A stretch of DNA of 64,000 nucleotides from a virus: IMG/VR virus record IMGVR_UViG_3300025840_000011; one strand, 5' to 3'. Under the pieces are notes generated by a model. It searched no databases. It was not told the origin of the DNA and worked only from the letters and a program-made list of their open reading frames with translations. A program made the position numbers and the translations under genes. Below are positions 36,841 through 55,017 of this stretch, piece after piece; within the stretch, counting starts at the first letter, position 1, and each line of letters starts with the position of its first letter.

Positions 36841-36885
36841 ACTAAATACAGGCATACTATGGGGGTGTCAATTAAATGACACCCC
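36841..36885 (+). promoter_or_regulatory. Late-promoter variant ACTAAATA followed by an inverted repeat
   Basis: ACTAAATA at 36841-36848; GGGGTGTCA-ATTAAA-TGACACCCC at 36862-36885. Confidence 0.55.
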
Positions 36886-36909
36886 AACTAATTGGAAAAG
36901 GAATATGGT

Positions 36910-37485
36910 ATGCGCTTAGTAATTAGCAGCGTGGTGTTACTTACATCATTAATTTTTGGAGTCGCAGTCAATGCACAGGACGCTGACGAAACTCCGACTC
37001 AAACAGTTGAACCTATCATAACTGAGAGTACCGTTACTACCAACGGTAAAACGACTACTATTCTCAGATCACCCCCTGCCTCTGCGATCACCCCGACAAT
37101 CAACACGTCGAACTCAGACTTGTGTACCTTTGGAGTTGCGGGTGCAATTCAAACTCAGATTCTTGGTGTCTCTACAGGTACTCAGGTAACGGATGAAAAT
37201 TGTGAGAGGTTAAAGAATGCAAAGACGCTCTATGATATGGGAATGAAAGTGGCCGCCGTGTCGGTTATGTGCCAAGACGAAAGAGTCTTTGATGCAATGA
37301 TGCACGCCGGAACACCGTGTCCATATGATGGTCTAATAGGTCCAGCGGCAAAGGCGGCGTGGGAAATCAACGAAGAGGAACAACCCAATGCAGAAGACTA
37401 CGACAAAGGGTTTACAAATGACAAGAAAACCTTACTGGGCGCTGGTGGTGTCCTTAGTATTCTTCTCATGCTTCTGGTCATCTAA
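36910..37485 (+). CDS. Cassette A gene 1: secreted Cys-containing protein with C-terminal Gly-Gly + hydrophobic anchor
   Basis: Signal peptide (..VAVNA), SPPASAI...CERLK...MCQD...PCP, tail GAGGVLSILLMLLVI; paralog of 51012..51617. Confidence 0.8.
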   Translation: MRLVISSVVLLTSLIFGVAVNAQDADETPTQTVEPIITESTVTTNGKTTTILRSPPASAITPTINTSNSDLCTFGVAGAIQTQILGVSTGTQVTDENCERLKNAKTLYDMGMKVAAVSVMCQDERVFDAMMHAGTPCPYDGLIGPAAKAAWEINEEEQPNAEDYDKGFTNDKKTLLGAGGVLSILLMLLVI

Positions 37486-38314
37486 CGTACATGCACAAAC
37501 CGTTTTCGGGACAACCGGAAATGCGGCGCAAGATGGTCTTACATGGGTAATGACCAACGTCCTGCCTCAACAGACAGGACTTACAGTTAATGGTGTTGTG
37601 TACAGATACACAACCATAAAGAACCCCGAAGACGATATGATCGTCTACGTGCAGAACGAGGATGCGGAGAACGAAGGTCAATACATTTTTCGATCCGCAG
37701 ACGATTGGTCTGGATTGCCAGGCAGTTCGATAAGGAGATTGGTTCCTGTCTCTAACATACCTCGAAGTAGGTGGGGAGACGGATCTATTGTTGTGGAAGG
37801 TGAAGGTAAAGTAACGGATCCTACTGTCCTCTACAACTATCAGTACGATCCTTGTTTTGGTGTAACTGATAGACCGGAGTGCCCGAATTATATTCCGTCC
37901 ACTCCAACCGTACCGGAAATTGTAGCGTATGATCCAATGGACGATCAGTTCGTACAAGAAGAACTGGAAAAAGAAACTGAAACTAAAGATGAGGAGGAAG
38001 AAGAGAGAGATAGAGAACAGATTGAGGAGGGTGGTGAATCAAAACCAAACCTGAGAAGGAAATCCCTCGAAGAGATGTTAGGTATTGTTGAGAGGTCACT
38101 TATCGCGTCCGCTGACCAACAGATACACAACCAACTACTCTTACTAAACTTCGTACCAACTTTTTATTATGATACACTCCCCGACACTAAATACGAGGAG
38201 ACCATAACTCTACAGGATGCGAATTTACCTGACAATACTAACGGGTATCGTGTAAACTTTGCCCAAGACCAACTACATCAAGAGATGGTCAATCTACAGT
38301 ATGAACAACCATAA
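37418..38314 (+). CDS. Cassette A gene 2: secreted beta-rich protein with Cys pair and acidic linker
   Basis: Signal peptide (..NVHA); paralog of 51544..52428. Confidence 0.8.
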   Translation: MTRKPYWALVVSLVFFSCFWSSNVHAQTVFGTTGNAAQDGLTWVMTNVLPQQTGLTVNGVVYRYTTIKNPEDDMIVYVQNEDAENEGQYIFRSADDWSGLPGSSIRRLVPVSNIPRSRWGDGSIVVEGEGKVTDPTVLYNYQYDPCFGVTDRPECPNYIPSTPTVPEIVAYDPMDDQFVQEELEKETETKDEEEEERDREQIEEGGESKPNLRRKSLEEMLGIVERSLIASADQQIHNQLLLLNFVPTFYYDTLPDTKYEETITLQDANLPDNTNGYRVNFAQDQLHQEMVNLQYEQP

Positions 38315-38327
38315 AAAGGAACATTAA

Positions 38328-38831
38328 ATGTTAAAGAAAGTACTACCATTAACGGCGTTGTCTCTTGTTCTCGCAACAAGTGCGAATGCAACTAATGTCG
38401 ATATCACGGGTACTGTAGATTCTAAGTGTGTGGTGACAACAGACACTCTAGGTGTCTTTGGAAACCCGACACCAAGTACACTCAGTACTGACGCAGTTGA
38501 CGGGGGTGTTGAACCCATCGTTCGCTACGATGTTATTCAGGCTGATTATTACAAGGCGACAATAACAACTCCAGACCAATTCGTTGAGAGTCCTGCTTTG
38601 GACGATGTTGTGACTTGGAGTGGAACAGTTTCGGTCAGTGAAGTTTCGGATCCCGCGATGGCGGCATACGACACTGAGAAGAGACTCTACAACAACGTAA
38701 CAGAAATCGATCTAACGGTTGCAGGAAGTACTTGGTTCAAAGTATCTTCAGAAGCCGACTATGGATTTGACAAGGCATTACCCGCTGGTATCTATCGTGC
38801 GACAGTACAGGCGGAGTGTATCGCAATCTAA
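38328..38831 (+). CDS. Cassette A gene 3: fimbrial/pilin-subunit-like secreted protein
   Basis: Signal peptide (..SANA), ITGTVDSKCVV N-terminus, G.Y.ATV..EC C-terminal strand; about 146 aa mature. Confidence 0.65.
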   Translation: MLKKVLPLTALSLVLATSANATNVDITGTVDSKCVVTTDTLGVFGNPTPSTLSTDAVDGGVEPIVRYDVIQADYYKATITTPDQFVESPALDDVVTWSGTVSVSEVSDPAMAAYDTEKRLYNNVTEIDLTVAGSTWFKVSSEADYGFDKALPAGIYRATVQAECIAI

Positions 38832-39209
38832 ATGATACGTTTTATTATGTTATTGACAGGATTGTTCTTGAGTGGGTCAGCGATGGCCCACTCTTGGACA
38901 CCAACATATCCAAAACTCGAAAGAAGTTTTGTTGAGAATGTGATGCAGACTGAGATGTTACTGATCAATCGAAGAAGTGATGTTGAGTTCTTCGAGATTA
39001 GTGTTTACGACTCTGAGTGGAACCCCGTGAAATTCGCCACGAGCGAAAAGATAATTAGGGTTCCTTACTTAGAGAGAAGAGAAGTAATGGTGTATATCCG
39101 ACAACAAGATGTTGGTATTGCAGATTACATATGTACAAAAACTAAAATTGTCAGACAAAGGACTACCGGAACGTCCGTGTCTTCTAGGATATGTTCGAGA
39201 TTGAAATGA
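38832..39209 (+). CDS. Cassette A gene 4: secreted Ig-like, PapD-N-chaperone-like protein
   Basis: Signal peptide (..SAMA), HSWTPTY, alternating beta strands, YIC...RICS. Confidence 0.5.
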   Translation: MIRFIMLLTGLFLSGSAMAHSWTPTYPKLERSFVENVMQTEMLLINRRSDVEFFEISVYDSEWNPVKFATSEKIIRVPYLERREVMVYIRQQDVGIADYICTKTKIVRQRTTGTSVSSRICSRLK

Positions 39210-39703
39210 AAAAATTACTCGTTATTGTAGCGTTATTGTTTTCTGCTGAGACCGCAGCGCAGGATTCTATACCCGCAACAACCACTACAACAATAATTGA
39301 GAGAGCGCCCACTAGTAACAGCGCGAGTTCTCTCAATCTTAATATGCCCAACTCTCCCCAAAGTTTTCAACAGGACCGTGTACGTGCAGGAGACTTCGAG
39401 TGTTCTGCCGCGATTGGTTCTGCAACAAATCTAGAGTTTGGTGTGGTGGGTATCCTCAATCAGGATGACCCTTACTACGGAACTTACTATGGTACGGACA
39501 TAGGTCCACCCACGAGATTTGGAAATCAAGCGTTCACACGAGACGTGGGTGTTTACGCACGGATCAATATTCCTATCGGTGCACCAAAAGAGAGACCCAA
39601 CTGTAACTTGTTATACAAACTAGAGTTGGAGAAGAAACGACTAGAGGTCTTAAGACTACAACAGGAACTACAAAACTTACGCAACTTGCAATTCGAAGAA
39701 TAA
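39206..39703 (+). CDS. Cassette A gene 5: secreted protein with amphipathic beta-hairpin and C-terminal coiled coil
   Basis: Signal peptide; DRVRAGD.ECS..IG, LEFGVVG, GVYARINIPIG, NC..LY.LELEKKRLE. Confidence 0.75.
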   Translation: MKKLLVIVALLFSAETAAQDSIPATTTTTIIERAPTSNSASSLNLNMPNSPQSFQQDRVRAGDFECSAAIGSATNLEFGVVGILNQDDPYYGTYYGTDIGPPTRFGNQAFTRDVGVYARINIPIGAPKERPNCNLLYKLELEKKRLEVLRLQQELQNLRNLQFEE

Positions 39704-39743
39704 TAAATACAGTTAAACTAACTACCAAAAAGAGAATAATAAT

Positions 39744-40211
39744 ATGGTAGAACTAGCTGTCGCGGTGCAAGTCGCTGGTGCCGCATATAATGCAATTAAG
39801 GGAGCAGTGGAAAAGGGTAGGGAAGCCCAAGATATGATTGGCGCGTTCGGAAAGTTTTTCGATTCTATGGACGCAGTGAGTGAAGCAAACATCAAGAACC
39901 AATCTACCGCAGGAGTTCAGAAACTTTTTAGTGGTAACAGTGTAGAGGCGCAGGCGTTGGAGATCACCGCCGCGAAACACAAGATTGCATGGATGGAAAA
40001 AGAACTCAGAGAGTACCTGATCTATTCCGGACAAGGCGCCTTCTACGAAGACATGATGGAAGAACGCAAAAGGATACGAAGGTATCGTCAGAACGAAATG
40101 CGTAGGAAGGCGCAGGCCAAGGCGTTCTGGATTGATGTTGCGGCGCTTGTTTTTGGTATAGGAATAAGTATATTTGTGATCACAGGACTCATCACAGTAA
40201 TCGTAAGTTAA
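39744..40211 (+). CDS. Cassette A gene 6: helical protein with C-terminal TM
   Basis: Paralog of 53784..54245 (SVEAQAL..TAA.HKI...EKEL.EYL.Y.GQ..FY.DMM.ER). Confidence 0.8.
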   Translation: MVELAVAVQVAGAAYNAIKGAVEKGREAQDMIGAFGKFFDSMDAVSEANIKNQSTAGVQKLFSGNSVEAQALEITAAKHKIAWMEKELREYLIYSGQGAFYEDMMEERKRIRRYRQNEMRRKAQAKAFWIDVAALVFGIGISIFVITGLITVIVS

Positions 40212-40220
40212 GGATAACAG

Positions 40221-40700
40221 ATGGCAGAATTTGAATTCGCGGGAATGACCTTCAGAGGTGGTAGGATAATGGTTATCCTCACCGCCCTGTCAACCTTGGG
40301 TGGTGCATCTTGGGGTGCATTTGAGTTCTATAAAGACTACATGGATATGAAAGAGATCATTGCGAACATCGATACCACAGAGATTGAGAACCGCAATAGA
40401 CTAATCGAGCAGAAGTTAGACGATGCGTTGATTCAAGTTGACGCCGCAGTAGACTATTCCAGAACTATCAAGAACGACTTACGAGACGATTTCAATCGCA
40501 TGGAACGCAACGTTGACCGTGTGGAGGATCAAGGGAGAACTCTAGAAACCGTAGTTGAAGATATGATAGATAGGGCTGACGAACGATTTGATACCAAACG
40601 AGATGCACTCGTTGTGGATACTGATCGTAAACTTCAACAGGTAGAGGAAAGACTCGACGCAAAAATACAGGCGTTTTTAGATAATCCTTTATCAAATTAG
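40221..40700 (+). CDS. Cassette A gene 7: N-terminal TM plus coiled coil, ending LDNPL
   Basis: MAEFEFAGMTFRGG...TALSTLGG..WGAFEFY.DY; paralog of 54538..55017. Confidence 0.8.
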   Translation: MAEFEFAGMTFRGGRIMVILTALSTLGGASWGAFEFYKDYMDMKEIIANIDTTEIENRNRLIEQKLDDALIQVDAAVDYSRTIKNDLRDDFNRMERNVDRVEDQGRTLETVVEDMIDRADERFDTKRDALVVDTDRKLQQVEERLDAKIQAFLDNPLSN

Positions 40701-40712
40701 GTCTTGACAAAA

Positions 40713-41087
40713 ATGAAAAATCGTGTTATAATCTTAGCTAGCTTGCTGGGGATGAGTATACTCAGCGGTTGTGCATCACTCTACGACGATAATGAGTCGT
40801 ATCAAGCGGTAGAACTCTACCACAACATCAATAATCTAGAATGTAGTGACGAAGGTCTCGCAATAGAACAAGCGGCGATTATCGATGATAACGTTGACTG
40901 GTTGATTGCGTACTCCGAACTCAAAGGATCCCGTGATGTTAATAACCTTTTACTACTTATGAAAACCACAACGGAACCCCTCGCGGCGCGAGAATCGATG
41001 TCACCTACATATTGTGGACTGAAGAAAACTTTATTGCAGGAACAGAGTCGTGACGTTGGAACGGCGATCCTACGGAGAAACAAATGA
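40713..41087 (+). CDS. Lipoprotein
   Basis: MKNRVIILASLLGMSILSG-C lipobox. Confidence 0.7.
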   Translation: MKNRVIILASLLGMSILSGCASLYDDNESYQAVELYHNINNLECSDEGLAIEQAAIIDDNVDWLIAYSELKGSRDVNNLLLLMKTTTEPLAARESMSPTYCGLKKTLLQEQSRDVGTAILRRNK

Positions 41088-41320
41088 GTCCAGAACTACA
41101 AGAAATTAAACGGCAAGCAGAAGACCAAGACATGTCTAGACTGGCCCTGTTAGTCCAGTCCACCACAGTCGAGTACGAGTCGGGTAACCTGACCAAGGAA
41201 GAGTTCTTTGAGATCCTCGAAGACATCAAGACCACTCAGGAGATTGCAGAACAGTCCAACTCCATGATCTGGAGAAACCGACTGATTTTGGCGATCTCAA
41301 CCCTCATGTCCTTGTACTGA
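41084..41320 (+). CDS. Hypothetical protein
   Basis: 78-aa ORF with GGAG SD and 4-nt overlap. Confidence 0.65.
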   Translation: MSPELQEIKRQAEDQDMSRLALLVQSTTVEYESGNLTKEEFFEILEDIKTTQEIAEQSNSMIWRNRLILAISTLMSLY

Positions 41321-41380
41321 AAATAAATTTAACTTTTTTTCGAAAAAAGTATTGACAATCTCTGCCTAGTGTAGTATTAT
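41320..41380 (+). promoter_or_regulatory. Strong early-type sigma70 promoter with UP element
   Basis: AT tracts, then TTGACA-N17-TATTAT. Confidence 0.8.
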
Positions 41381-41430
41381 ACATACATAACTGAGGAGAT
41401 AGTCTTCTCAGAACTTTGGAGAAATATATT

Positions 41431-42405
41431 ATGTCGCATGAAGTCGAAACTATGGCATACGCAGGTGCAGTCCCTTGGCATGGTCTTGGTGTACCAGTAT
41501 CTAACGATCTCACTCCCGCACAGATGATGCAGAAGGCTGGTCTTGACTGGACAGTCGAGAAGGTTCCTACCTATGCACGTGTGGGTGACACGGTTCTGTC
41601 GCAAATTGAAATCCCGACAGGTGTCGAGGCTCTTGTTCGTTCTTCGGACAACAAGGTTCTGACTCAGGTTGGTGAGAACTGGAACCCCGTCCAGAACGAA
41701 GAAGCGTTTGAATTCTTCTCTGAGTACGTTCTTGCTGGTGACATGGAAATGCACACCGCTGGTTCACTGAAGGGTGGACAGATGGTTTGGGCACTCGCCA
41801 AGATCAAGGAGTCGTTCGATATCCTTGGTGGTGATCAGGTTGACTCCTACCTTCTCTTCTCTAACCCTCACCAGTACGGTAAGTCGATTGACGTTCGGTT
41901 CACTCCGATTCGTGTGGTCTGCAACAACACTCTTACCATGTCGCTGGGTCAGCAGGTTGCAAACTCCTGCAAGATGAACCACCGTTCTGAGTTTAACCCT
42001 CAGAAGGTTAAGGAAGCTCTGGGTATCGCCCACGAGAAGTTTGATCAGTACAAAGAGATGGCAGAGTTCCTCGCAAAGAGGCGGTTCACTATGGACTCTC
42101 TGATCCAGTACTACAACGAAGTCTTCCCACGTACTTACACTGGTAAGAAGTCTCCGGACAATGTACAACAGTTCGAAGACCTAACTACGAACGCGAAGAA
42201 GGCGTTTGAGGTTCTAGAGACTCAGCCTGGTGCGGAGTTCGCGGAAGGTTCATGGTGGCAGGCACTTAACAGTGTCACCTACTTGACCGATCACATTATG
42301 GGTCGAGAGGCAGACTCACGTTTGACCTCTGCATGGTTTGGTTCTAACCAGACTCGTAAACAACGTGCGGTTGAAAAGGCGGTGGAGTTCGCAGTAGCCG
42401 CTTAA
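41431..42405 (+). CDS. DUF932/DUF945 family phage/plasmid protein
   Basis: MAYAGAVPWHGLG, AGLDWTVEK, PVQNEEAF, TAGSLKGG, TPIRVVCNNTL. Confidence 0.85.
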   Translation: MSHEVETMAYAGAVPWHGLGVPVSNDLTPAQMMQKAGLDWTVEKVPTYARVGDTVLSQIEIPTGVEALVRSSDNKVLTQVGENWNPVQNEEAFEFFSEYVLAGDMEMHTAGSLKGGQMVWALAKIKESFDILGGDQVDSYLLFSNPHQYGKSIDVRFTPIRVVCNNTLTMSLGQQVANSCKMNHRSEFNPQKVKEALGIAHEKFDQYKEMAEFLAKRRFTMDSLIQYYNEVFPRTYTGKKSPDNVQQFEDLTTNAKKAFEVLETQPGAEFAEGSWWQALNSVTYLTDHIMGREADSRLTSAWFGSNQTRKQRAVEKAVEFAVAA

Positions 42406-42411
42406 CAGTTT

Positions 42412-42490
42412 GTGGGTACGGCCCTCTGGTAACAGGGGGCCTCAACCGGACGCTTGGGACATGCAAACCCTGTCACCCTACCCACTTTTT
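42412..42490 (+). ncRNA. Candidate structured RNA (multi-stem) upstream of tRNA-Thr
   Basis: GTGGGTA/TACCCAC closing stem around a GGCCCTCTG-GTAA-CAGGGGGCC hairpin and a GACA/TGTC stem, followed by TTTTT. Confidence 0.5.
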
Positions 42491-42494
42491 ATTC

Positions 42495-42569
42495 GCCGGA
42501 GTAGCACAACGGTAGTGCAACTGATTTGTAATCAGTAGGTTGAGGGTTCGATTCCTTTCTCCGGCACCA
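42495..42569 (+). tRNA. tRNA-Thr (anticodon TGT)
   Basis: GCCGGAG/CTCCGGC acceptor stem, ACTGA-TTTGTAA-TCAGT anticodon arm, GGTTCGATTCC, encoded CCA. Confidence 0.95.
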
Positions 42570-42584
42570 TATGAGATTGATGTG

Positions 42585-42869
42585 ATGAACCAAGACATAC
42601 TATCACAAGCAAGGCGTTTTTATCATCATGTGGTCAATGGCGGTAAGTTGAAACCTGAAGATGTTTCTTACATGGTATCTGCTCTTGAGGAAGCCTACGA
42701 AGACCACGCACTGACATTTGAAGAATGGTTAGATGAAATAGAATGCTACTCGACACGTCGAGAACGCCTAGGTGAAGAACTGCCTGTATCAGATGCATTG
42801 ATAAAATGGCTACGAGCCGCCTATGAAGTAGGATACGAACAAGGAAAGAAAGATGACCTTACCAACTGA
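42585..42869 (+). CDS. Hypothetical protein
   Basis: Start moved downstream of the tRNA; TFEEWLDEIECYSTRRERL. Confidence 0.65.
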   Translation: MNQDILSQARRFYHHVVNGGKLKPEDVSYMVSALEEAYEDHALTFEEWLDEIECYSTRRERLGEELPVSDALIKWLRAAYEVGYEQGKKDDLTN

Positions 42870-43041
42870 AAGAACCAATGCAGTATTGAGAACAGAGAAG
42901 TTCCTATTAGACCTCTGCAATCCCAAGGCTACACCTAGAGTTCCACGAGCAGTGAGGCAAGAGGCAGGCAGACTGCTAAAACACTATCCCAGCAAATATG
43001 ATATGGAAGAAATGGAGGGACGTTTTGAATATAAAACATGA
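42853..43041 (+). CDS. BPSL0761-like small protein
   Basis: MTLPTERTNAV...FLLDL...VPRAVRQEA..LLKHYP. Confidence 0.65.
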   Translation: MTLPTERTNAVLRTEKFLLDLCNPKATPRVPRAVRQEAGRLLKHYPSKYDMEEMEGRFEYKT

Positions 43042-43642
43042 ACCTATTTTTAACACTGATGCTATGGCAGAACACTATTCTAAAAAAGACGGTGTAGCTG
43101 TTAAGTATGTTTGCACAAGTGCACTGGGCGGTGAAGCACAGGCTATGGATATTTTCTATCGTGATACTCCTCATCCTCAATTTGGTAATCGCTACTTTGG
43201 TATGTTTATTGACACAGAGGATCGTGTGATGATCACCAATGCAGATCGTATCGAGGGTGCAGAGTTTGCCATGATCGAGGATGGCGAAGGTAACCTACAT
43301 TACAGTGCTCATCGACATGACTGCAAAATGATCGGTGACAACATGATTGATGGTGGCAGAGCATACATTCGCTCAAGCGGTGATGTTGTATTGTACAAAA
43401 TTCGTGATGGTGAGATTGTAAAAATGGAAGATCGGACCAGTTCTAAGTTACCGACAATCATTGCGGTGAACGATAGATTGAATGAGGTCATGGTCGAGGA
43501 ACTTGATGGATCTTACAATAGATACAAAAAAGTCTTGACAATGTGGTCTCACTTCTGTATCATAGAAAAATGTGAGATGGAAGTTGAATCGGGGTCGCCC
43601 TGTAACTGGTGTGGTCTCACAGAGAATCAACAATACGATTAA
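43025..43642 (+). CDS. Hypothetical protein
   Basis: DIFYRDTPHPQFGNRYFG, YSAHRHD, IDGGRAYIR; C-terminal Cys cluster. Confidence 0.7.
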   Translation: MNIKHEPIFNTDAMAEHYSKKDGVAVKYVCTSALGGEAQAMDIFYRDTPHPQFGNRYFGMFIDTEDRVMITNADRIEGAEFAMIEDGEGNLHYSAHRHDCKMIGDNMIDGGRAYIRSSGDVVLYKIRDGEIVKMEDRTSSKLPTIIAVNDRLNEVMVEELDGSYNRYKKVLTMWSHFCIIEKCEMEVESGSPCNWCGLTENQQYD

Positions 43643-43659
43643 CACTCTAGTACGGAGAT

Positions 43660-43848
43660 ATGAAAATGAGTGAAGTACGTACCGTTCGTGACATCGAAAT
43701 CGATATCGCATGGGCTCAGAATGAGTTGGACGATATCCAGAACGGAGACCTTCTGGGTCTGGGGATGGTTCGGAAGCGCCGTAAGGAGCTCCAAAATCTG
43801 GTCAAATCCTTGTTCAAGGAGCGAAATGTTTTGAAAAAAAGTTCTTGA
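43660..43848 (+). CDS. Hypothetical protein
   Basis: 62-aa ORF with GGAG SD. Confidence 0.55.
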   Translation: MKMSEVRTVRDIEIDIAWAQNELDDIQNGDLLGLGMVRKRRKELQNLVKSLFKERNVLKKSS

Positions 43849-43873
43849 CATTTCTTGCGGAGGCTGGTATTAT
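43830..43873 (+). promoter_or_regulatory. Early-type sigma70 promoter with A-tract
   Basis: TTGACA-N17-TATTAT; spacer begins TTTCTTGCGGAG as at 14800. Confidence 0.8.
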
Positions 43874-43905
43874 AGGTACTGAAATGGTGATTCGAGAGGA
43901 ATCTA

Positions 43906-44493: not shown

Positions 44494-44791
44494 GAAGGAA
44501 TTCGCGCCAGAAGAACTGGCGAATTCAAAAAGAATATTTAAGTCCGCTACACCGAAGGGTGGATTTGACTGGTACATTAAATGGTTCGCAACCGTAATGA
44601 TACTCTCAGCGGTCACTATCAGATCGACTGGTATACCGGAGTTGCAGATTTACGATATGGCGTTCTCTTGGGTTGGTGCAATTGGGTGGTTTGTAGTTTC
44701 CTACATATGGCAGGATAGGGCACTTATACTACTCAACGGAGTGATGGGTGTCCTGTTGTTCTCTGGACTGATACGTTACTTCGTAAATTAG
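44486..44791 (+). CDS. Three-TM membrane protein
   Basis: DWYIKWFAT...WQDRALILLNG. Confidence 0.7.
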   Translation: MDEKEFAPEELANSKRIFKSATPKGGFDWYIKWFATVMILSAVTIRSTGIPELQIYDMAFSWVGAIGWFVVSYIWQDRALILLNGVMGVLLFSGLIRYFVN

Positions 44792-44797
44792 GAAAAA

Positions 44798-47093: not shown

Positions 47094-47094
47094 C

Positions 47095-47943
47095 ATGGCA
47101 CAATACTCAGTAAACAGAAACACACATCACAACACATCAAACAGTGACTTACATGAAATCATGTTGTTGGCTGATCAGGACGGCAACATTATCAATACGT
47201 TTGGTGTTGCATCGAATATTCCTATTGCAGGTGGACTCGTTGATGGGTATAGTGCAATACATAAGTTTGGTAGAAATCCAAATGTAGGAAACATACCAGA
47301 AACTATTTGGATGCACGGAGGACTTTATAGTTATCTTGATGTTGGTTCTGATAGTACAATTTATGCATATAGCGCAAGCTCTGACGATGGTCCTGGCAAT
47401 CCTGGTGCTCACACGATTACTGTTCAAGGTTTAGATAATGATTTCAATCTAATTGAAGAAACGATTACTGTAAATGGTGCAGCTTCTACTGCTTCATTCC
47501 TAAGAGTTTATAGAGCATTTGTTGCGACTGCTGGGGCGTTAAGGGCAAATGATGGTAATGTTCTTATATCCACCGCCGCGGCTGGAGGTGGTACAGTTCT
47601 TGCTGATATTGGCGTTATTGGTACAGGAACAACTACTGGTTTGGGTCAAACTCAACTTGCACTTTATACAATACCAGCTGGAAAAACTGGTTATCTCACT
47701 ACTTGGAACATCGGTGTAGCACCAATGAATAATGCTGTCACAGTGACTTTAAAAGCAAGAGAACTAGATGGTGATGCACCATTTAGATCAAAGGATATTG
47801 TTGATATCGTAGGTGGATATACTACTCAGAATTATTCAATTCCCTTGCGTTTTCCAGAAAAAACTGATATTGAAGTGAGAGGAACTGGTGACACTGGTTC
47901 AGTTATTTCATCTTCTTTTGATGTTATACTAGTAGATAACTAA
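47095..47943 (+). CDS. Hypothetical beta-rich protein, probably structural
   Basis: HKFGRNP.VG..ETIW, GQTQLALYTIPAGKTGYL, EKTDIEVR; A/T-ending codons. Confidence 0.7.
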   Translation: MAQYSVNRNTHHNTSNSDLHEIMLLADQDGNIINTFGVASNIPIAGGLVDGYSAIHKFGRNPNVGNIPETIWMHGGLYSYLDVGSDSTIYAYSASSDDGPGNPGAHTITVQGLDNDFNLIEETITVNGAASTASFLRVYRAFVATAGALRANDGNVLISTAAAGGGTVLADIGVIGTGTTTGLGQTQLALYTIPAGKTGYLTTWNIGVAPMNNAVTVTLKARELDGDAPFRSKDIVDIVGGYTTQNYSIPLRFPEKTDIEVRGTGDTGSVISSSFDVILVDN

Positions 47944-48006
47944 ATGTTATATGCATATAGCCAAACAATCCTTTACTTTTGTGTTCAGATATAGTACAAT
48001 GCGCGT

Positions 48007-49242
48007 ATGAAATCGTTTATGACACATCAAATGCTCTCTGAGGCGAAGAACACTCACATGACTCACATCGAGGATAAAGTCCTCTATGGGGGAGTTGAGG
48101 GAACTCGTCAGGCGATCAACGCACTTCGTTCCCTGCGCGATATGCTTGCTGGCAAACATAAGGGCGATATCTCCGTCAAGTGGGACGGTGCTCCTGCTAT
48201 CTTCGCAGGCATTGATCCTCGGGACGGTAAGTTCTTCGTGGCGAAGAAGGGTATCTTCAACAAAAACCCCAAAGTATACAAGACGAAAGCAGATGTAGAC
48301 GCTGACACTTCCGGTGACTTGAATGTAAAACTCAACGCTGCACTTGAGGAACTCCCTGCTCTTGGCATCAAGGGTGTCATACAGGGCGACTTCTTGTTTG
48401 GTCCTGGAGATGTAGCGACCAAGAATATTGGTGGCGATGCTTATGTTACGTTCCACCCCAACACGATCGTGTATGCCTTGCCTACTGGTAGTGCTGCGGC
48501 GAAAGAAGTGAAGACTGCTCGTATCGGTATTGTATGGCATACAACATACACTGGTGATACGTTTGAAAGTATGCGAGCATCATTCGGCGTCAACGTTGGT
48601 GCTCTGAAGAACAGTCGTAAGGTTTGGAGTCAAGATGCTATGCTTCGTGACGTGACGACTGCTACTTTGACTGCTGCCAAAACTAAAGAAGTGACCGAAT
48701 ACCTTTCAACTGCTGGTAAAATATTCCAGAAGATTGCTGGCAGCACCCTTCGGCAACTTGAGGCGAACCAAGAACTCGCTCAGTTGATTGAACAGTTTAA
48801 CAACACGTTCGTCCGTAAGGGTATGGTGATACAAGACTCGCGGCGACACGTGATTGCACTACAACGTTGGTTGCGCACGAAGTACAAAGCAGAGATGGAT
48901 AAGCGATCCACGGAGCGTGGTAAGAAGGCACAAAAAGAAAAACTCAACAAAATTATGGCGTTCTTCTCGAAGCAAAACACCGCATCATTAATCGCTATGT
49001 TCGAATTGCAAAAGAATATTGTATTGGCGAAACTGATCCTTATAAATAAACTCAATGCCCTTGCGAATATAAGCACTTTTGTTAAAACGCGGAAGGGTTA
49101 CAAGGTAACAGGTCAAGAAGGATTTGTTGCTATCGACAAACTTGGTGGTGATGCGGTGAAGTTAGTTGATCGTATGGAATTTTCATATAACAACTTTTCA
49201 CCAGATATATTAAAAGGATGGGATAAACCTAGTAGGAATTAA
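48007..49242 (+). CDS. Ligase/capping-enzyme-superfamily nucleotidyltransferase-like protein (DUF6267-like)
   Basis: SVKWDG (motif I KxDG), IQGDF (III), EGFVAI (IV), VKLV (V). Confidence 0.6.
   Translation: MKSFMTHQMLSEAKNTHMTHIEDKVLYGGVEGTRQAINALRSLRDMLAGKHKGDISVKWDGAPAIFAGIDPRDGKFFVAKKGIFNKNPKVYKTKADVDADTSGDLNVKLNAALEELPALGIKGVIQGDFLFGPGDVATKNIGGDAYVTFHPNTIVYALPTGSAAAKEVKTARIGIVWHTTYTGDTFESMRASFGVNVGALKNSRKVWSQDAMLRDVTTATLTAAKTKEVTEYLSTAGKIFQKIAGSTLRQLEANQELAQLIEQFNNTFVRKGMVIQDSRRHVIALQRWLRTKYKAEMDKRSTERGKKAQKEKLNKIMAFFSKQNTASLIAMFELQKNIVLAKLILINKLNALANISTFVKTRKGYKVTGQEGFVAIDKLGGDAVKLVDRMEFSYNNFSPDILKGWDKPSRN
49041..49048 (+). promoter_or_regulatory. T4-type late promoter (intragenic)
   Basis: TATAAATA. 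Confidence 0.55.
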
Positions 49243-49244
49243 AC

Positions 49245-49739
49245 GTGCCTAAACCACTTTCATTTAAAGATTTTCTCGTGGTCGACTATGCTCCAGGAAT
49301 GGGTGAGTATATCAACTATCAAGCGGCCAAACGCAAAAAGCAGCAAGGTGCTGGCAGCAATGCCGAGTATGCTTCTTACCAACCTGAAGGTGAGAAGATA
49401 GAAGAAGCACTGACTCATGCTCAGCGTATTAAGAAACGTCAGATGATGAAGAAGATGAAGGGACGTATTAAAATTGGAAGACTTCGTGCACTAAAAAGAA
49501 CTCCAACAATGGACGTTATCAAGAGACGTGCAAAGAAGAAAGCGAGATTGCTCATGCTCAAGAAATTGACTAGGGGCAAGTCGAAGCAAGATATGAGTTT
49601 CGCTATGCGCCAGTCATACGAAAAGAAACTTGACAAGATGAAACCTCGCTTAGATCGTATTGCCAGAAGGTTAATCCCCGACGTTAGAAAAGCAGATCGT
49701 GAGAGAAAGAAGGCAGCATCTGCTGCTAAAAATAAATAA
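49245..49739 (+). CDS. Highly basic protein, probable internal head protein
   Basis: LSFKDFL N-terminus, IEEAL followed by a K/R-rich helix. Confidence 0.7.
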   Translation: MPKPLSFKDFLVVDYAPGMGEYINYQAAKRKKQQGAGSNAEYASYQPEGEKIEEALTHAQRIKKRQMMKKMKGRIKIGRLRALKRTPTMDVIKRRAKKKARLLMLKKLTRGKSKQDMSFAMRQSYEKKLDKMKPRLDRIARRLIPDVRKADRERKKAASAAKNK

Positions 49740-49759
49740 TGTAGTCGTAGGGAGACGAC

Positions 49760-50887
49760 ATGATTAAGTCGTTTAATGACTATCTGGTAGAAGAAGCAAA
49801 GGTCGCTTATTTTACCTTCGGTCGTATGAATCCTCCAACCTCTGGTCATCAGAAGTTGTTAGACATGCTCGCAAAAAATGCGGGCAAAAATCCTTATTTC
49901 GTTTTCCTATCTCAGTCACAAGACGCCAAGAAAAATCCACTCGACTACAGCGCGAAGGTAAAGCATGTTCGTAAGATGTTTCCTCGTCACGCTCGTCGAG
50001 TTTTGATCAACAAGAAAGTCCGCACTGCCTTTGATGCAGCATCATACCTGTATGAGCAAGGTTTTAAAAACTTGGTCATGGTTGTTGGTTCTGACCGTGT
50101 TCGAGAGTTTACGACATTGCTAGAAAAGTATAATGGTGTGAAGGGTAAGCATGGATTTTACAACTTCAAAAACATCCAAGTAGTTTCTGCTGGAGCACGC
50201 GATCCTGACGCCGAAGGTGTAGAGGGTATGTCTGCTTCTAAACTCCGTGCGTTCGCAGCGGATAATGACTTCGCAGGTTTCTCTCAGGGTCTAGGATCTA
50301 TGAGTAACAAAGACGCGAAGAAGTTGTTTGTTGATGTACGCAACGGTATGGGCATCAAAGAAGAAACTGTGTTCAAACGCCACGTAGAACTTGACCCTGT
50401 GTCGGAGACTCGTGAGAAGTTTGTAAAGGGTGAGTTGTTTGAAGTTGGTGATCAGGTTGTAGTAAAAGAATCTGAAGAAGTTGGCACCATCACTCATCTA
50501 GGCAGCAACTATGTTATCGTCCAACTGGGCGAGGATAAAGTTGTGCGCAAATGGTTAGACGCCATTGAAAAGTTAGATGAATATGTGTCCAGCGCAGAGT
50601 TTGTTCCGTCACCCACTGGTGGCAAGAAATATGCGACACTCAACATGCGCGAAGAACCTAAAACTCCTCAAGACCCTGACATTAAAGATCGCAAGGGTTC
50701 CCAACCAAAAGCATACCATAAAGGTTTAAGCAAGTCGATGAAACGTCGTCGTGATGCTCAATTTAAGAAGCAGACTAAAATGTCAGACTCAGATCCAAAG
50801 GCATACAAACCTGCTCCTGGCGACAAAACAACTAAAACTAAACCGTCAAAATACACGAAAGCGTTTTCTAAGATGTACGGCGACTAA
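49760..50887 (+). CDS. HxGH-class cytidylyl/nucleotidyltransferase-like protein with basic C-terminal extension
   Basis: FTFGRMNPPTSGH, KNPL, VVGSDR, SAGARDPD, MSASKLR. Confidence 0.8.
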   Translation: MIKSFNDYLVEEAKVAYFTFGRMNPPTSGHQKLLDMLAKNAGKNPYFVFLSQSQDAKKNPLDYSAKVKHVRKMFPRHARRVLINKKVRTAFDAASYLYEQGFKNLVMVVGSDRVREFTTLLEKYNGVKGKHGFYNFKNIQVVSAGARDPDAEGVEGMSASKLRAFAADNDFAGFSQGLGSMSNKDAKKLFVDVRNGMGIKEETVFKRHVELDPVSETREKFVKGELFEVGDQVVVKESEEVGTITHLGSNYVIVQLGEDKVVRKWLDAIEKLDEYVSSAEFVPSPTGGKKYATLNMREEPKTPQDPDIKDRKGSQPKAYHKGLSKSMKRRRDAQFKKQTKMSDSDPKAYKPAPGDKTTKTKPSKYTKAFSKMYGD

Positions 50888-50890
50888 ATA
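50883..50890 (+). promoter_or_regulatory. Late-promoter variant ACTAAATA upstream of cassette B
   Basis: Same octamer as upstream of cassette A. Confidence 0.5.
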
Positions 50891-51011
50891 TTCGTGGTCT
50901 CCGTTATGTGCTTGACCTGACGTTCCTGTTTTATTTCCTTTTGTAATTACGAATAATACTATGCAAATCTGATTTGATTTGTTGGACAAAACTACATTAG
51001 GAAATGGTAAA

Positions 51012-51617
51012 ATGGATAAACTGGACGCAAGTCTATGGCGCATTATCTGTGCCGCCATATTAGTAGTAACATTAGCAGTTGTTGCATCAGAGGCGATATC
51101 GCAAGATGAAAACCAACCGCTTGATGATGTTATTAGAACCGAGTCGGTCACTAACAGTACAGTGACTACGAACGGCAACACAACCACAACACTGAAGTCT
51201 CCACCTGCTTCAGCAATCACTCCTACTATAAACACTTCCAACTCCGACCTCTGTACGTTCGGAGTTGCTGGTGCAGTACAAACGCAGATTCTTGGTATCT
51301 CTACTGGTACACAGTTTACTGATGAAAACTGTGAACGTCTCAAGAACGCAAAGACCTTGTACGATATGGGTATGAAAGTTGCAGCAGTATCAATGATGTG
51401 TCAGGATGAAAGAGTGTTTAAGGCAATGATGAATGCTGGAACACCTTGTCCTTATGACGGACTTATTGGTGATCAGGCAAGAGCAGCGTGGTTAGCAGAA
51501 GGTAACACAGTAGAAGAAAACGTAAAACCAGAGGAAGGATTGGATGAAACGGATAAGACTGTCGCAGCTGCTAGTGGCGGCATTGCTAGTTTGCTTGCCC
51601 TCTTACTCTTACTCTGA
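51012..51617 (+). CDS. Cassette B gene 1 (paralog of 36910..37485)
   Basis: Core differs at 6 of 91 aa from copy A by manual alignment; tail SGGIASLLALLLLL. Confidence 0.8.
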   Translation: MDKLDASLWRIICAAILVVTLAVVASEAISQDENQPLDDVIRTESVTNSTVTTNGNTTTTLKSPPASAITPTINTSNSDLCTFGVAGAVQTQILGISTGTQFTDENCERLKNAKTLYDMGMKVAAVSMMCQDERVFKAMMNAGTPCPYDGLIGDQARAAWLAEGNTVEENVKPEEGLDETDKTVAAASGGIASLLALLLLL

Positions 51618-52428
51618 GCAAGTATTCGGCACCACAACCAATGCGGCGAGTTCTGGATATAACTGGGTTATGTCCAATGTCTTGCCTCAGGCGACAGGGT
51701 TGACTGTCAGTAATGTGATATACAGATACACTACAGTGAAAGATCCTGATGATCCTATGTTGGTGCACGTTTCTAACGAAAATCCTATAGACGGTGGATA
51801 TACATTTAGAAGTACTGATGACTGGACTGGAATACCAGGAAATACAATAAACAGAGTTATACCGATATCGCAAATACCTATCGAGTATTGGGGGGATGGA
51901 AGTATTGAGTGGGAAGGCAAAGGGAGAGTTGATGACCCTTTTGTGGTATACACTTATCAATATGACACCTGCTATGATCCACAAGCAGATCCGGATTGCC
52001 CAGGATACAAACCCGAGATACCTGATATACCACCCGTCCCAGATGTTGCTGATCCTCTTAATGACCAGTTTGTACAAGATGAGTTAGATCGCGAAATGAT
52101 GCTTCGCGATGAAGACGAAGAAGAAAAACAAAGAGCAAAACTTGCAGATGCTGAAGAGGAAGAAGAAGACGTAGACCTAGAAACTGTGCTGGGTATAGTT
52201 GGGCGTTCGCTACAAGGCGCAGAGGATACTGCTAAGCACAATCAGGTCATGGCGTTAAGTCAGTTTTCTCAACAATATTTCCAACAGTTGCCTGATGGTG
52301 TTATAGAGGACACTGTTGTGTTAAAAGATTCTAGACTCCCGAGGAATAATCGGGGTCGTAGACTACAGTTTGCGCAAGACTTACTTCATGATAAATTAGT
52401 AAAATCTCAATATAGAGGAGAACAGTAA
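51544..52428 (+). CDS. Cassette B gene 2 (paralog of 37418..38314)
   Basis: VFGTT.NAA, WVM.NVLPQ.TGLTV, FRS.DDW.G.PG, YQYD.C, FAQD.LH. Confidence 0.8.
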   Translation: MKRIRLSQLLVAALLVCLPSYSYSEQVFGTTTNAASSGYNWVMSNVLPQATGLTVSNVIYRYTTVKDPDDPMLVHVSNENPIDGGYTFRSTDDWTGIPGNTINRVIPISQIPIEYWGDGSIEWEGKGRVDDPFVVYTYQYDTCYDPQADPDCPGYKPEIPDIPPVPDVADPLNDQFVQDELDREMMLRDEDEEEKQRAKLADAEEEEEDVDLETVLGIVGRSLQGAEDTAKHNQVMALSQFSQQYFQQLPDGVIEDTVVLKDSRLPRNNRGRRLQFAQDLLHDKLVKSQYRGEQ

Positions 52429-52925
52429 TGTTCAAAAAGACGTTGGCATTGTGTGTATCGCTCGCAGCGATGAATGCATATGCTGTAGACACACCGATCA
52501 TTGGGCAGGTAGAGTCTAAGTGTGTGGTGACAACTGATAAGCAGGGTGTTTATGGAAACCCGAGTGCTAGCATTCTCAGTACTGATGCAGCAGACGGTGG
52601 AGTAGAACCTGTTGTGCGATTCGATGTTGTCCTCGCTGAAGCATACAAGGCAGTGATTGCTCATCCGATTTCATTCTCACAAAGTCCACAGTTGAACGAC
52701 GTTGTCAACTGGACTGGATCAACTTCTGTAGAAGCAGTCTCTGACGCTGGTATGTCAGCATACGACACTTCTAAAGTTGAATACGATAATGTGACAGAAG
52801 TCGATCTTGATATCGCTGGCAGCACTTGGTTCAAGGTAAGTTCTGAAGCAGATTACGGTTTTAATAAGGCACTCCCAGGAGGCACTTATACTGCAATCGT
52901 AGAAGCGAACTGCATAGCACTATAA
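52428..52925 (+). CDS. Cassette B gene 3: pilin-like (paralog of 38328..38831)
   Basis: SKCVVTTD..GV.GNP, DGGVEP, AGSTWFKVSSEADYGF.KALP.G.Y, CIA. Confidence 0.7.
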   Translation: MFKKTLALCVSLAAMNAYAVDTPIIGQVESKCVVTTDKQGVYGNPSASILSTDAADGGVEPVVRFDVVLAEAYKAVIAHPISFSQSPQLNDVVNWTGSTSVEAVSDAGMSAYDTSKVEYDNVTEVDLDIAGSTWFKVSSEADYGFNKALPGGTYTAIVEANCIAL

Positions 52926-52928
52926 ACT

Positions 52929-53303
52929 ATGCGCTTCGTTATGGCGGTAATCGGGTGTCTGCTGTGTGCGCAAGTTTATGCTCACCAGTGGACGCCCACA
53001 TATCCCAAGGTAACTGGTTCATTTGTTCCTGGGATCTATCAAGCAAAGATGTACTTGTGGAATAGTCGAAAGGATGTTTCATATTATACATTTGAAGTGT
53101 TTGATGAAGATTTTCTACCTGTACCATTCGCAACAGCAGATAGGACGGTACAGTTAGATTATTTGAAAAAGAAAGAAGTGGTAATTTATTTTAGAGAGGC
53201 AGACTACCTTCGTTCAGTTTATATTTGTAGTCGGTCTATGATTTTACAGGGGGACGTAAGTAGAACGGTTGTGTCCTCGAGGATATGTTCGAAAATACGA
53301 TGA
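52929..53303 (+). CDS. Cassette B gene 4: chaperone-like (paralog of 38832..39209)
   Basis: AH.WTPTYPK, FAT, YIC, VSSRICS. Confidence 0.65.
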   Translation: MRFVMAVIGCLLCAQVYAHQWTPTYPKVTGSFVPGIYQAKMYLWNSRKDVSYYTFEVFDEDFLPVPFATADRTVQLDYLKKKEVVIYFREADYLRSVYICSRSMILQGDVSRTVVSSRICSKIR

Positions 53304-53782
53304 AAAGATTATTGTTGTTTTTATTTTTAGTTTCTGGTTCGGCATATGGACAGAGCAACGGGATAAACCTTGCGATACCGCAAAGTCCCCAGTCCTTCCA
53401 ATCAGATAGAGTTAGAGCAGGTGACGTCGAATGCTCAGCGGCGATCGGGTCATCTACAAACGTAGAGTTTGGGGTTGTTGGTATATTAAACCAAGAAGAT
53501 CCAATTTACAACCTTGCTTCGCAAGATCCATATATGATGAACCGATATAATACAGGTGAGTTCTTGCGAGACATTGGTGTGTATGGGAAGATTACTATCC
53601 CTATCGGCGCACCTAAGCAAAGGTTGAATTGTAATGCGTTATATCAGTTAGAGTTAGAAAAGAAGCGATTGGAAGTTATGAAACTACAGCAGGAAATAGT
53701 AAACCTGCGTCAGTTAAAGTTTGAAGGGTCTGGAATACCGACAGCACCGAACTTGATGGCAGGACCACCAAGAGAGGAATAA
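53300..53782 (+). CDS. Cassette B gene 5 (paralog of 39206..39703)
   Basis: SPQSFQ.DRVRAGD.ECSAAIGS, EFGVVGILNQ, IPIGAPK, LELEKKRLEV. Confidence 0.8.
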   Translation: MKRLLLFLFLVSGSAYGQSNGINLAIPQSPQSFQSDRVRAGDVECSAAIGSSTNVEFGVVGILNQEDPIYNLASQDPYMMNRYNTGEFLRDIGVYGKITIPIGAPKQRLNCNALYQLELEKKRLEVMKLQQEIVNLRQLKFEGSGIPTAPNLMAGPPREE

Positions 53783-53783
53783 A

Positions 53784-54245
53784 ATGATAGAAGTAGCAGC
53801 AGCGTTGTCAATGGCAGGCTCTGCTTTTAAAATGCTAAAAGGGGCAATTGAACAGGGACGTGAAGTACAAGATATGTACGCGCAGTTTGCTCAGTTTTTT
53901 GACGCGAAGGAATCGCTCGCAGAGGCAGATCAACATGCAAAGAATCCATCGATGGTGGGTTCACTTTTTGGTGGCAGCAGTGTTGAAGCGCAGGCACTAC
54001 AGGTTACTGCTGCTCGTCATAAAATTAAACAACTAGAAAAAGAGTTGTACGAATATTTGTTGTACACTGGTCAACAACAATTCTACGATGATATGATGAA
54101 AGAAAGGCGAGTTATTCGTCAGCGTAGAATAGAGGCAGCACAAGCAGCTGCTCGGAAAAAAGCAAACATAATAGACGGCATCGCAATAGTTTTGTTTTTA
54201 TGTTTTTCTGGTGCTATGATTGCCGGATTCGTGAGTGTCTTATGA
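53784..54245 (+). CDS. Cassette B gene 6 (paralog of 39744..40211)
   Basis: Shared motifs and C-terminal TM. Confidence 0.8.
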   Translation: MIEVAAALSMAGSAFKMLKGAIEQGREVQDMYAQFAQFFDAKESLAEADQHAKNPSMVGSLFGGSSVEAQALQVTAARHKIKQLEKELYEYLLYTGQQQFYDDMMKERRVIRQRRIEAAQAAARKKANIIDGIAIVLFLCFSGAMIAGFVSVL

Positions 54246-54376
54246 TAAAGACTGAGATCACACAGAATGGCATCAGATATATTGTATATGATAATAATGA
54301 TCGTATCGTCGTTATTACGTCTGATAGAAAACTCGCTCAAAAATTATGGGAGAAGAAAAGGGATGCGCAGAGGTAA
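54242..54376 (+). CDS. Small hypothetical protein (44 aa), cassette B only
   Basis: MIKTEITQNGIRYIVYDNNDRIVVITSDRKLAQKLWEKKRDAQR; ATGA overlap. Confidence 0.5.
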   Translation: MIKTEITQNGIRYIVYDNNDRIVVITSDRKLAQKLWEKKRDAQR

Positions 54377-54551
54377 GAAAACTGATATAATTGATTATAT
54401 CGACATTCGTATTTCACAACTCGCTTCTGATATGCACAAAGCGAAAGACGAATACGACAAGCAATGGTATAATCGTATCATTCAAGAACTCAGTTGGGCA
54501 AGGTCGCAAGATCACAACTGTTACATGGGAGAAAACAATGGCGGAGTTTGA
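54363..54551 (+). CDS. Small hypothetical protein (62 aa), cassette B only
   Basis: MRRGKK...YIDIRISQL...WYNRIIQELSW...NCYM. Confidence 0.6.
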   Translation: MRRGKKTDIIDYIDIRISQLASDMHKAKDEYDKQWYNRIIQELSWARSQDHNCYMGENNGGV

Positions 54552-55017
54552 ATTCGCTGGCATGACGTTCCGTGGTGGTAAGATAGTGGTGCTGATCACT
54601 GCTCTATCTACACTCGGCGGTGGCGCATGGGGTGCGTTTGAATTTTATAACGACTACCGTAACATGAAAGCACAGATAACAAGTTACGTTGCTCCTGATC
54701 TTTCTCATATTGATCAAGAGTTGGCAGTACAGAAAGAAACTATGGCATCTGTAGAGGCGAGTTTATCTGCCCTCGCTCTAAAGATTGATGCCTTGAAATC
54801 AGATTTGAGTAATGACATGGATAAGGTTGAAGCACTTGCTCGTCGCGTAGACGATTCAACTGCAACTACCCAACGCGAATTACGAGATGACGTTTATGAG
54901 ATTGAGATTCGAGTAAACGAAAGGATGAGGACTTTGGATAAAGACCTGCGAGATGCGCGCAAAGATCTCGAAGAGAAGATTCAGATTATCCTCGACAATC
55001 CACTCAATAATCCGTAG
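54538..55017 (+). CDS. Cassette B gene 7 (paralog of 40221..40700)
   Basis: MAEFEFAGMTFRGG...LDNPL. Confidence 0.8.
   Translation: MAEFEFAGMTFRGGKIVVLITALSTLGGGAWGAFEFYNDYRNMKAQITSYVAPDLSHIDQELAVQKETMASVEASLSALALKIDALKSDLSNDMDKVEALARRVDDSTATTQRELRDDVYEIEIRVNERMRTLDKDLRDARKDLEEKIQIILDNPLNNP

Follow-up and report, generated by a model that had tools for sequence, protein, structure and literature searches.

A stretch of 64,000 nucleotides from the IMG/VR virus record IMGVR_UViG_3300025840_000011, called the window here in its full length, contains the same seven protein-coding genes in the same order at two places, 36910-40700 (copy A) and 51012-55017 (copy B), with all reading frames intact and all genes on the plus strand. 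A first-pass annotation of this DNA had pointed out the two gene sets and had taken them for a secreted, pilus-like module; open reading frame lists and translations agree on the genes and their order. We describe here the proteins of this cassette, two of which (those of genes 3 and 4) resemble a pilus subunit and half of its chaperone, and discuss what the cassette may do in the infected cell.

Proteins of the cassette

Gene 1 (36910-37485 in copy A, 51012-51617 in copy B) matches phrog_20531; its copy A product consists of a leader, a Thr-rich linker, a domain with four cysteines and a C-terminal hydrophobic tail (..TLLGAGGVLSILLMLLVI). Gene 2 (37418-38314; 51544-52428) encodes a leader, a beta-rich N-terminal domain with a CX8C motif, an acidic linker and a C-terminal domain ending in ..LVxLQY. 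The leader of gene 2 is encoded in another frame across the hydrophobic tail of gene 1 (37418-37485 and 51544-51617), and the same overlap, which is 68 nucleotides long in copy A and about 70 nucleotides overall, is found in related loci. Gene 3 (38328-38831; 52428-52925) encodes a pilin-like immunoglobulin (Ig) subunit with a leader, an N-terminal extension (VDITGTVDSKC), a glycine (Gly154) at position -14 from the C-terminus and the cysteines Cys34 and Cys164. It is followed by gene 4 (38832-39209; 52929-53303) for a one-domain, PapD-like and chaperone-like protein with a nearly invariant His as its mature N-terminus. Gene 5 (39206-39703; 53300-53782), which always accompanies genes 3 and 4, encodes a leader, a domain of about 100 amino acids with two cysteines and a C-terminal helix resembling a leucine zipper. 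The product of gene 6 (39744-40211; 53784-54245), an optional member, is helical with a C-terminal transmembrane segment, and that of gene 7 (40221-40700; 54538-55017) has an N-terminal transmembrane segment (MAEFEFAGMTF..), a periplasmic coiled coil and a C-terminal DNPL motif.

Leaders were called with our own script, which uses hydropathy and an AXA heuristic, and not with SignalP. In both copies the products of genes 1-5 start with a hydrophobic core after one to three K/R residues, followed by an AXA-like site, as is typical for Sec-type leaders. The mature proteins of genes 1-5 contain 4, 2, 2, 2 and 2 conserved cysteines, respectively; leaders and cysteine pairs had both been predicted before for these five genes and were recovered by the heuristic in both copies. 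Genes 6 and 7 have no conserved cysteine outside the membrane segment in either copy. The even numbers in genes 1-5 and their lack in genes 6 and 7 look like a periplasmic signature, which would favour the envelope function proposed below. Membrane anchors are provided by the transmembrane segments of genes 6 (C-terminal) and 7 (N-terminal). A GlyGly-CTERM or sortase-type signal was considered for the hydrophobic tail of gene 1 and set aside, as no basic cluster follows the tail.

Searches of Pfam, NCBIfam (both at E up to 1) and PHROGs with all cassette proteins returned only unnamed PHROGs. Comparison of the seven families with each other by hhalign found leader-peptide similarity and no other internal homology. 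Profile searches of the PDB with genes 3, 4 and 5 gave nothing below E 0.3, and searches of the ESM Atlas by features led to unnamed viral clusters only for gene 1 and to no usable match among named clusters for gene 5.

Divergence of the two copies

Global alignments of the two copies show amino acid identities of 62, 50, 62, 40, 60, 46 and 41% for genes 1 to 7, and the nucleotide identity is 50-64%. In the core of gene 1, 6 of 91 residues differ, exactly as noted in the first-pass annotation. Synonymous divergence (dS) is at least 1.7 or saturated and then not computable, and nonsynonymous divergence (dN) is 0.30-0.66. The copies are old paralogues, both under purifying selection, and not an assembly repeat. 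Together with the intact frames, this comparison is in line with the earlier view that the second set is neither an assembly repeat nor a decaying copy.

In a concatenated tree, copy A groups with loci L003 and L004 (support 100) and copy B is located on a deep branch with L033 and L018. The copies are two cassette lineages and not the product of a recent tandem duplication. Five long relatives (56-148 kb) have one gene 3 copy each; thus, two copies per genome are unusual. The two copies are perhaps co-diverged sets with differing specificities.

Gene 4 and gene 3 resemble a chaperone and its subunit

The gene 4 protein is 125 amino acids long (106 in its mature form). The AlphaFold2 model, with a predicted local distance difference test (pLDDT) score of 85, is a seven-stranded Ig fold of the PapD-like or major sperm protein (MSP) type. 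A fold search with VIA-align against 48,161 chains gave SafB as the best match (Z 10.4, 105 residues aligned, 3.6 Å), followed by FimC (10.2), YadV (9.9), CfaA (9.6), PapD (9.4), FaeE and CsuC (both 9.0) and then CupB2 and EcpB. The top matches are thereby the N-terminal domains of nine chaperones of chaperone-usher (CU) systems (Z 8.3-10.4, about 100 aligned residues). MSP domains are interleaved among these with scores just as good (Z 9.5); what is matched is therefore the PapD-like superfold. The Foldseek results (E 6e-4 to 3e-3) agree with those of VIA-align, and both bear out the earlier proposal that gene 4 is a single Ig domain like the N-terminal domain of PapD. The BFVD fold search yielded weak, unnamed matches. 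An exhaustive profile search of 1.84 billion representatives collected 164 clusters for gene 4, all of them single-domain proteins of about 160 amino acids or less, and no two-domain chaperone was among them. A His-brace copper site at the mature N-terminal His of gene 4 was rejected, as one full-length relative starts with Leu and there is no second conserved His.

Gene 3 is modelled as an Ig sandwich (pLDDT 87). Its top Foldseek matches are CU pilins at borderline E values (CfaB with 1e-3, then the PapG pilin domain, CsuA/B, FimG and Caf1). Weak fold matches to CanA and to Pyrobaculum bundling pili (Z 6.1-6.6) were also found, and in the ESM Atlas searched by shape the only non-viral row was DUF4402, with a template modelling score of 0.54. 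We consider the sequence hallmarks of gene 3 to be more telling than these fold scores. A glycine at position -14 is present in 25 of 25 distinct gene 3 proteins, compared with 29 of the 30 PF00419 proteins of E. coli K-12 that served as reference pilins. Likewise, all 25 carry the motif [FILV]xGx[VIL]x3C directly after the leader, which is one residue shorter than the FxGxVxxxxC of FimA-type pilins, and the last strand shows alternating hydrophobic residues. Gene 3 has the size and the termini of a fimbrial subunit, as had been suspected. The penultimate aromatic residue of 27 of the 30 E. coli pilins is absent; gene 3 has a cysteine at -4 instead, which pairs with the N-terminal cysteine and links the first and last strands.

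Predicted complex of gene 3 and gene 4

A multimer prediction for the two proteins, suggested as a check by the first-pass annotation, docks the pair in the arrangement known as donor-strand complementation. The input was mature gene 3 and mature gene 4, each with its own alignment. The interaction prediction score from aligned errors (ipSAE) was 0.70, 0.72 and 0.69, and the best of three controls reached 0.01; the runs have at least 92% of contacts in common, and the partner pLDDT is at least 87. The pair thereby passes a mark that, in the calibration of the tool, 58 of the 80 solved complexes and 2 of the 110 mismatched pairs had attained; these counts apply here only roughly, since own alignments were used.

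In the predicted complex the last strand of gene 3 (residues 154-167) lies next to the last strand of gene 4 (residues 109-123). The paired residues are 159 with 115/116/117, 161 with 116/117/119, 163 with 118/120/121 and 165 with 119/120/121; the numbers rise together, and the strands are therefore parallel. The A strand of gene 3 (31-38) contacts the first mature residues of gene 4 (20-23), with residues 35 and 36 of gene 3 touching residues 21, 118 and 120 of gene 4. In addition, gene 4 contacts core residues of several gene 3 strands, and residues 22-30 of gene 3 are free. As modelled, the interface has the geometry of donor-strand complementation, with parallel G1-F and A1-A pairing. The statement best supported by our analysis is that genes 3 and 4 would encode a half-chaperone and its exported subunit, acting together in the manner of a CU pair.

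Distribution and sub-modules of the cassette

A scan of IMG/VR with gene 3 found 38 loci, and all of those with enough flanking sequence carry genes 1-2-3-4-5-7 in this order. The corresponding scan with gene 5 matched at least 590 stretches. Family hidden Markov models were applied to 83 loci (the gene 5 loci that were read and seven loci from metagenome-assembled genomes) and showed the order 1-2-3-4-5-(6)-7-(8) in all of them, with gene 6 in about one third and gene 8, a lipoprotein gene described below, in about 15. More than 100 uncultured phage contigs have this order. The conserved co-occurrence that the first-pass annotation asked for is thus seen in both sets of loci (38 and 83). Its description of a single seven-gene module holds for the conserved order and has to be revised for the composition: the cassette consists of two sub-modules, {3,4,5} and {1,2,7}, with genes 6 and 8 as optional additions.

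The trio {3,4,5} is found without genes 1, 2 and 7 in loci L171, L172, L173 and L176; the short contigs L171, L173 and L176 carry only genes similar to 3, 4 and 5, including divergent relatives of gene 4 from the exhaustive profile search. The T4-like contig L177 has the genes in the order 1-2-7-3-4-5. Accordingly, {3,4,5} is a mobile trio and {1,2,7} is a second unit, which joins the trio in T4-like phages. Searches of cultured phages by megablast with copy A and by tblastn with the window's genes 3 and 5 gave no match; the divergent gene 5 of L176 reaches 181 cultured Vibrio phage records. In Vibrio phage PS14A.1 the trio corresponds to p0043-p0045 and is located behind two large genes. In the metagenome scans, an alignment of divergent gene 4 proteins gave no usable pattern and a single protein found nothing.

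Locus L172 (1092-2422) carries two tandem gene 3 paralogues of 233 and 214 amino acids, one with a long N-terminal extension and the other starting nearly at the first cysteine. This is reminiscent of the shaft and tip subunits in CU operons, where a paralogue without extension is expected for the tip. In L173 (342-3800) the divergent trio lies between an Xre-type helix-turn-helix gene and a Sel1-repeat gene, on 4-kb contigs with a context that is not T4-like; this locus may be of temperate phage or bacterial origin.

Members of the second unit can also be recognised in known phages. Homologues of gene 1 are present in the pelagiphages HTVC115P, HTVC023P and Mosig, in roseophage CRP-207, in Ralstonia phage RSP15 and in Achromobacter phage JWDelta/JWAlpha. 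Adjoining the gene 1 homologue of HTVC115P is gp53, which has an acidic linker and a C-terminal ..LVxMQY domain in common with gene 2. Proteins similar to gene 7 (N-terminal transmembrane segment, coiled coil and C-terminal NPL) are HTVC115P gp49, HTVC023P gp48, Mosig_200 and CRP-207 gp73. The last of these (L042:3292-3873) is annotated as 'putative lysozyme'; Pfam finds no lysozyme domain in it, and it is a gene 7 homologue with the DNPL motif.

Bacterial homologues of gene 3 were considered as a clue to the host and discarded. The seven loci concerned (L122-L128) are on contigs of metagenome-assembled genomes from five unrelated taxa (Melainabacteria, Aquiluna, Pseudomonadales, Rhodobacteraceae and Saprospiraceae) and all carry the phage cassette; most likely they are mis-binned phage DNA. 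Literature searches found no published description of such a module.

Late-promoter-like motifs and RNA-library contigs

A motif resembling a T4 late promoter, ACTAAATA, is located on the plus strand at 36841-36848, 61 nucleotides upstream of gene 1 in copy A, and again at 50883-50890, upstream of copy B. The canonical T4 late motif TATAAATA is not found directly upstream of either copy. Of 21 related loci, 17 have a motif with the core TAAATA, mostly TATAAATA, in the 200 nucleotides upstream of gene 1, where about 5% would be expected by chance from the density of the core in the window. RNA-library contigs from four studies are identical to copy A over 1.6-1.9 kb. Compared with copy A, the cover of copy B by such contigs is lower and patchy, and contig depth cannot rank expression.

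A proposed assembly in the envelope of the infected cell

No open reading frame of the size of an usher is present in or near either cassette, and a search for the usher family PF00577 (E up to 1) in five related contigs of 56-148 kb found nothing, with the E. coli control positive; the absence of a classical usher that had been noted before is borne out by both approaches. We propose, with a probability of roughly 45%, that copies A and B are diverged and functional versions of an envelope cassette expressed late by the phage, which combines an usher-less chaperone-subunit set {3,4,5} with the genes {1,2,7} that tie it to the envelope.

According to this proposal, after Sec export the one-domain, PapD-like protein of gene 4 would cap the gene 3 protein by inserting its last strand beside the C-terminal strand of gene 3, leaving the N-terminal extension of gene 3 free. 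This extension, with its alternating hydrophobic residues and invariant glycine, might then take the place of gene 4 on the next subunit. In this way, short oligomers or fibres linked by strand exchange could arise in the periplasm, nucleated or held by the C-terminal coiled coil of gene 5. Genes 1, 2 and 7, together with the optional genes 6 and 8, would supply inner-membrane-anchored proteins that span the periplasm and tie the assembly to the envelope. The cassette would come into play late in infection, in the periplasm or at the cell surface. Since no outer-membrane pore is encoded, the product most likely stays bound to the envelope, and the missing pore and the membrane-anchored partners both fit a periplasmic, envelope-bound assembly, which is therefore more likely than a surface pilus. 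As to its role, our leading guess is the masking or blocking of envelope structures, for superinfection exclusion or for the protection of progeny from debris; help with the breakdown of the envelope at lysis is a guess that we rank second.

Several results weigh against the proposal. Compared by hhalign with PapD_N (PF00345; 11 E. coli domains), gene 4 has a P of 0.13, and gene 3 compared with Fimbrial (PF00419; 27 E. coli domains) has a P of 0.07 over only 17 N-terminal columns, which hold just the N-terminal motif; for both, Pfam gives no match at E up to 1. Neither hhalign result is significant, and by sequence genes 3 and 4 do not belong to these families. Ranked by Z, generic adhesin Ig domains lead the matches of gene 3 at 7.8, which is within the background range. 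The good score of the predicted complex may stem from the model's memory of solved chaperone-pilin complexes; since such complexes are solved, the docking shows likeness and is not proof of binding. Furthermore, the RNA-library contigs are compatible with transcription and may also stem from carry-over of DNA.

The lack of significant homology to pilins or chaperones and the background Z scores of gene 3 would also fit a look-alike, in which genes 3 and 4, with neither strand donation nor polymerisation, encode a generic exported and stable Ig-like heterodimer or binders of host periplasmic targets, for instance to inhibit an envelope machine of the host. That the gene 3 monomer is already modelled confidently points in the same direction. 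We regard such a look-alike as unlikely, since the predicted interface has the exact CU geometry (parallel G1-F and A1-A), Gly -14 and the N-terminal motif are invariant, CU chaperones dominate the fold matches of gene 4 and two subunit paralogues occur side by side in L172.

Slightly less probable in our judgement is that the block is a lysis device that helps to break the outer membrane, with gene 7 resembling an i-spanin and gene 8 or genes 1 and 2 as the outer partners. The architecture of gene 7 (N-terminal transmembrane segment and periplasmic coiled coil), the lipoprotein gene 8 and the late-promoter-like motif are in favour of it. In addition, the gene 7 homologue adjoins an M15 peptidase in HTVC023P (gp48/gp49) and lies just upstream of the terminase in CRP-207, a frequent site of lysis genes. 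However, the cassette proteins have no match to a spanin family in PHROGs or Pfam, copy B and most related loci lack gene 8, the product of which is not Pro-rich, and the trio {3,4,5} also occurs where gene 7 is absent. Neither copy has an endolysin or holin gene found next to it, and two full copies would be odd for such a function.

The least probable alternative is the reading of the first-pass annotation, a true cell-surface pilus or fibre, in which the infected cell would display a gene 3 polymer exported either through an outer-membrane pore of oligomeric gene 5 (or of gene 1 or gene 2) or by way of an usher of the host: it would draw on the same fold, hallmark and complex results, on the constant presence of gene 5 beside genes 3 and 4 and on the two conserved amphipathic beta segments and the zipper helix of gene 5, but PF00577 is found neither in the cassette nor in the five related contigs, mature gene 5 has only about 125 amino acids and matches no known pore family (Pfam, NCBIfam, PDB profile and ESM Atlas searches), gene 4 has no second domain, unlike every known chaperone that docks to an usher, and a late-expressed product would have little time before lysis.

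A wider claim can be made, tentatively and with considerable doubt: lytic phages of several unrelated types (T4-like phages, Vibrio siphophages and others) might carry a minimal, usher-free donor-strand assembly system that comprises a subunit, its one-domain chaperone and a new third factor and that builds a polymer of strand-exchanged subunits within or on the dying cell's envelope. This would be a previously unrecognised class of envelope structure made by phages, with two orthogonal versions in the window.

Neighbouring features and source of the window

Directly after gene 7 of copy A, and only there in the window, lies gene 8 (40713-41087, plus strand) for a lipoprotein with the lipobox LSGC. 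A perfect extended sigma-70 promoter (TTGACA, a spacer of 17 nucleotides and TGt TATAAT; 12 of 12 matches) is found at 40704-40732 and overlaps the start of gene 8, so that the ATG (40713) falls within its spacer. A transcript from this promoter, if active, would omit the gene 8 leader and serve the downstream genes. A second sigma-70 site with 11 of 12 matches is located at 41352-41380. Copy B in turn has an extra open reading frame of 94 amino acids between genes 6 and 7 (54267-54551, plus strand), which has no family match and the 3' end of which overlaps the start of gene 7.

Two regions outside the copies stand out in the RNA libraries. Within the stretch to which the contigs were matched, the highest contig depth in all four (24-111) is at 41976-42639, which covers the end of a DUF932 gene and a tRNA-Thr (42495-42569). 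At 47260-47933 (phrog_8198), RNA contigs of four studies reach several times the depth of the neighbours, with 23-26 mismatches per 550-630 bases. Because of these mismatches, the signal is from a related phage and not from the phage of the window. Several RNA contigs end at 47190 and 47933.

The window stems from a T4-like myophage and encodes a T4-type DNA polymerase, a DnaB-like helicase, a ribonucleotide reductase and a thymidylate synthase. The DNA polymerase shows 70.6% identity to that of Phage C48C1 and about 47% to those of cyanomyophages; the cassette is absent from Phage C48C1, the nearest complete genome. The window recurs nearly identically in 14 listed freshwater metagenome runs (at least 95% of sampled words), and 72-83% of its sampled words recur in six freshwater metatranscriptome runs. 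The habitat of the phage is thus freshwater, instead of the marine setting assumed earlier.

Comparison with known systems

If the docking is real, the donor-strand mechanism exists outside bacterial CU operons, in the form of a half-chaperone without an usher, and has spread widely in aquatic phages, with 590 or more stretches in IMG/VR and 181 records of cultured Vibrio phages. This raises the questions of what the smallest machinery for strand complementation and exchange is and which structure lytic phages construct in the envelope towards the end of infection. The presence of the trio in cultured Vibrio phages makes these ideas testable, and two co-diverged sets in one genome provide a natural test of chaperone-subunit specificity.

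The closest parallel is to CU pili (FGL-type Caf1M-Caf1, SafB-SafA and DraB, class 5 CfaA-CfaB and archaic CsuC-CsuA/B). As in these systems, both partners are exported by Sec, gene 4 folds like the chaperone N-terminal domain, gene 3 is an Ig domain of about 145 amino acids with Gly -14, an alternating hydrophobic last strand and an N-terminal extension with a conserved glycine, and in the predicted complex the last strand of the chaperone runs parallel to the last strand of the subunit. In contrast to them, the cassette has no usher, the chaperone has one domain and not two, and sequence homology is not detectable; the disulfide of gene 3 joins the first and last strands, gene 5 has no counterpart in CU systems, and the cassette is carried by lytic phages and probably expressed late.

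Fibres of donor-strand-linked Ig-like subunits that form without an outer-membrane catalyst are known from Bacillus TasA, Pyrodictium CanA and the bundling pili of Pyrobaculum, showing that an usher can be dispensed with. However, these have no dedicated PapD-like chaperone and are assembled outside the cell, and the matches of gene 3 to them are weak. Two-component spanins (lambda Rz/Rz1 and T4 PseT.3/PseT.2) are similar in that gene 7 is an N-terminally anchored periplasmic coiled coil with the adjacent lipoprotein gene 8, but no family is matched, gene 8 varies in its presence between loci and is not Pro-rich, and gene 7 always occurs with the exported genes 1 and 2.

T5 Llp, T4 Imm and Sp, and Cor are phage exclusion proteins that are exported or lipidated and act in the envelope of the infected cell. 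They offer a functional analogy to the role proposed here and differ from the cassette in being single, small and mostly early proteins without structural similarity to it. Phages seem to have borrowed part of a bacterial pilus-assembly mechanism for a job in the envelope of the infected cell.

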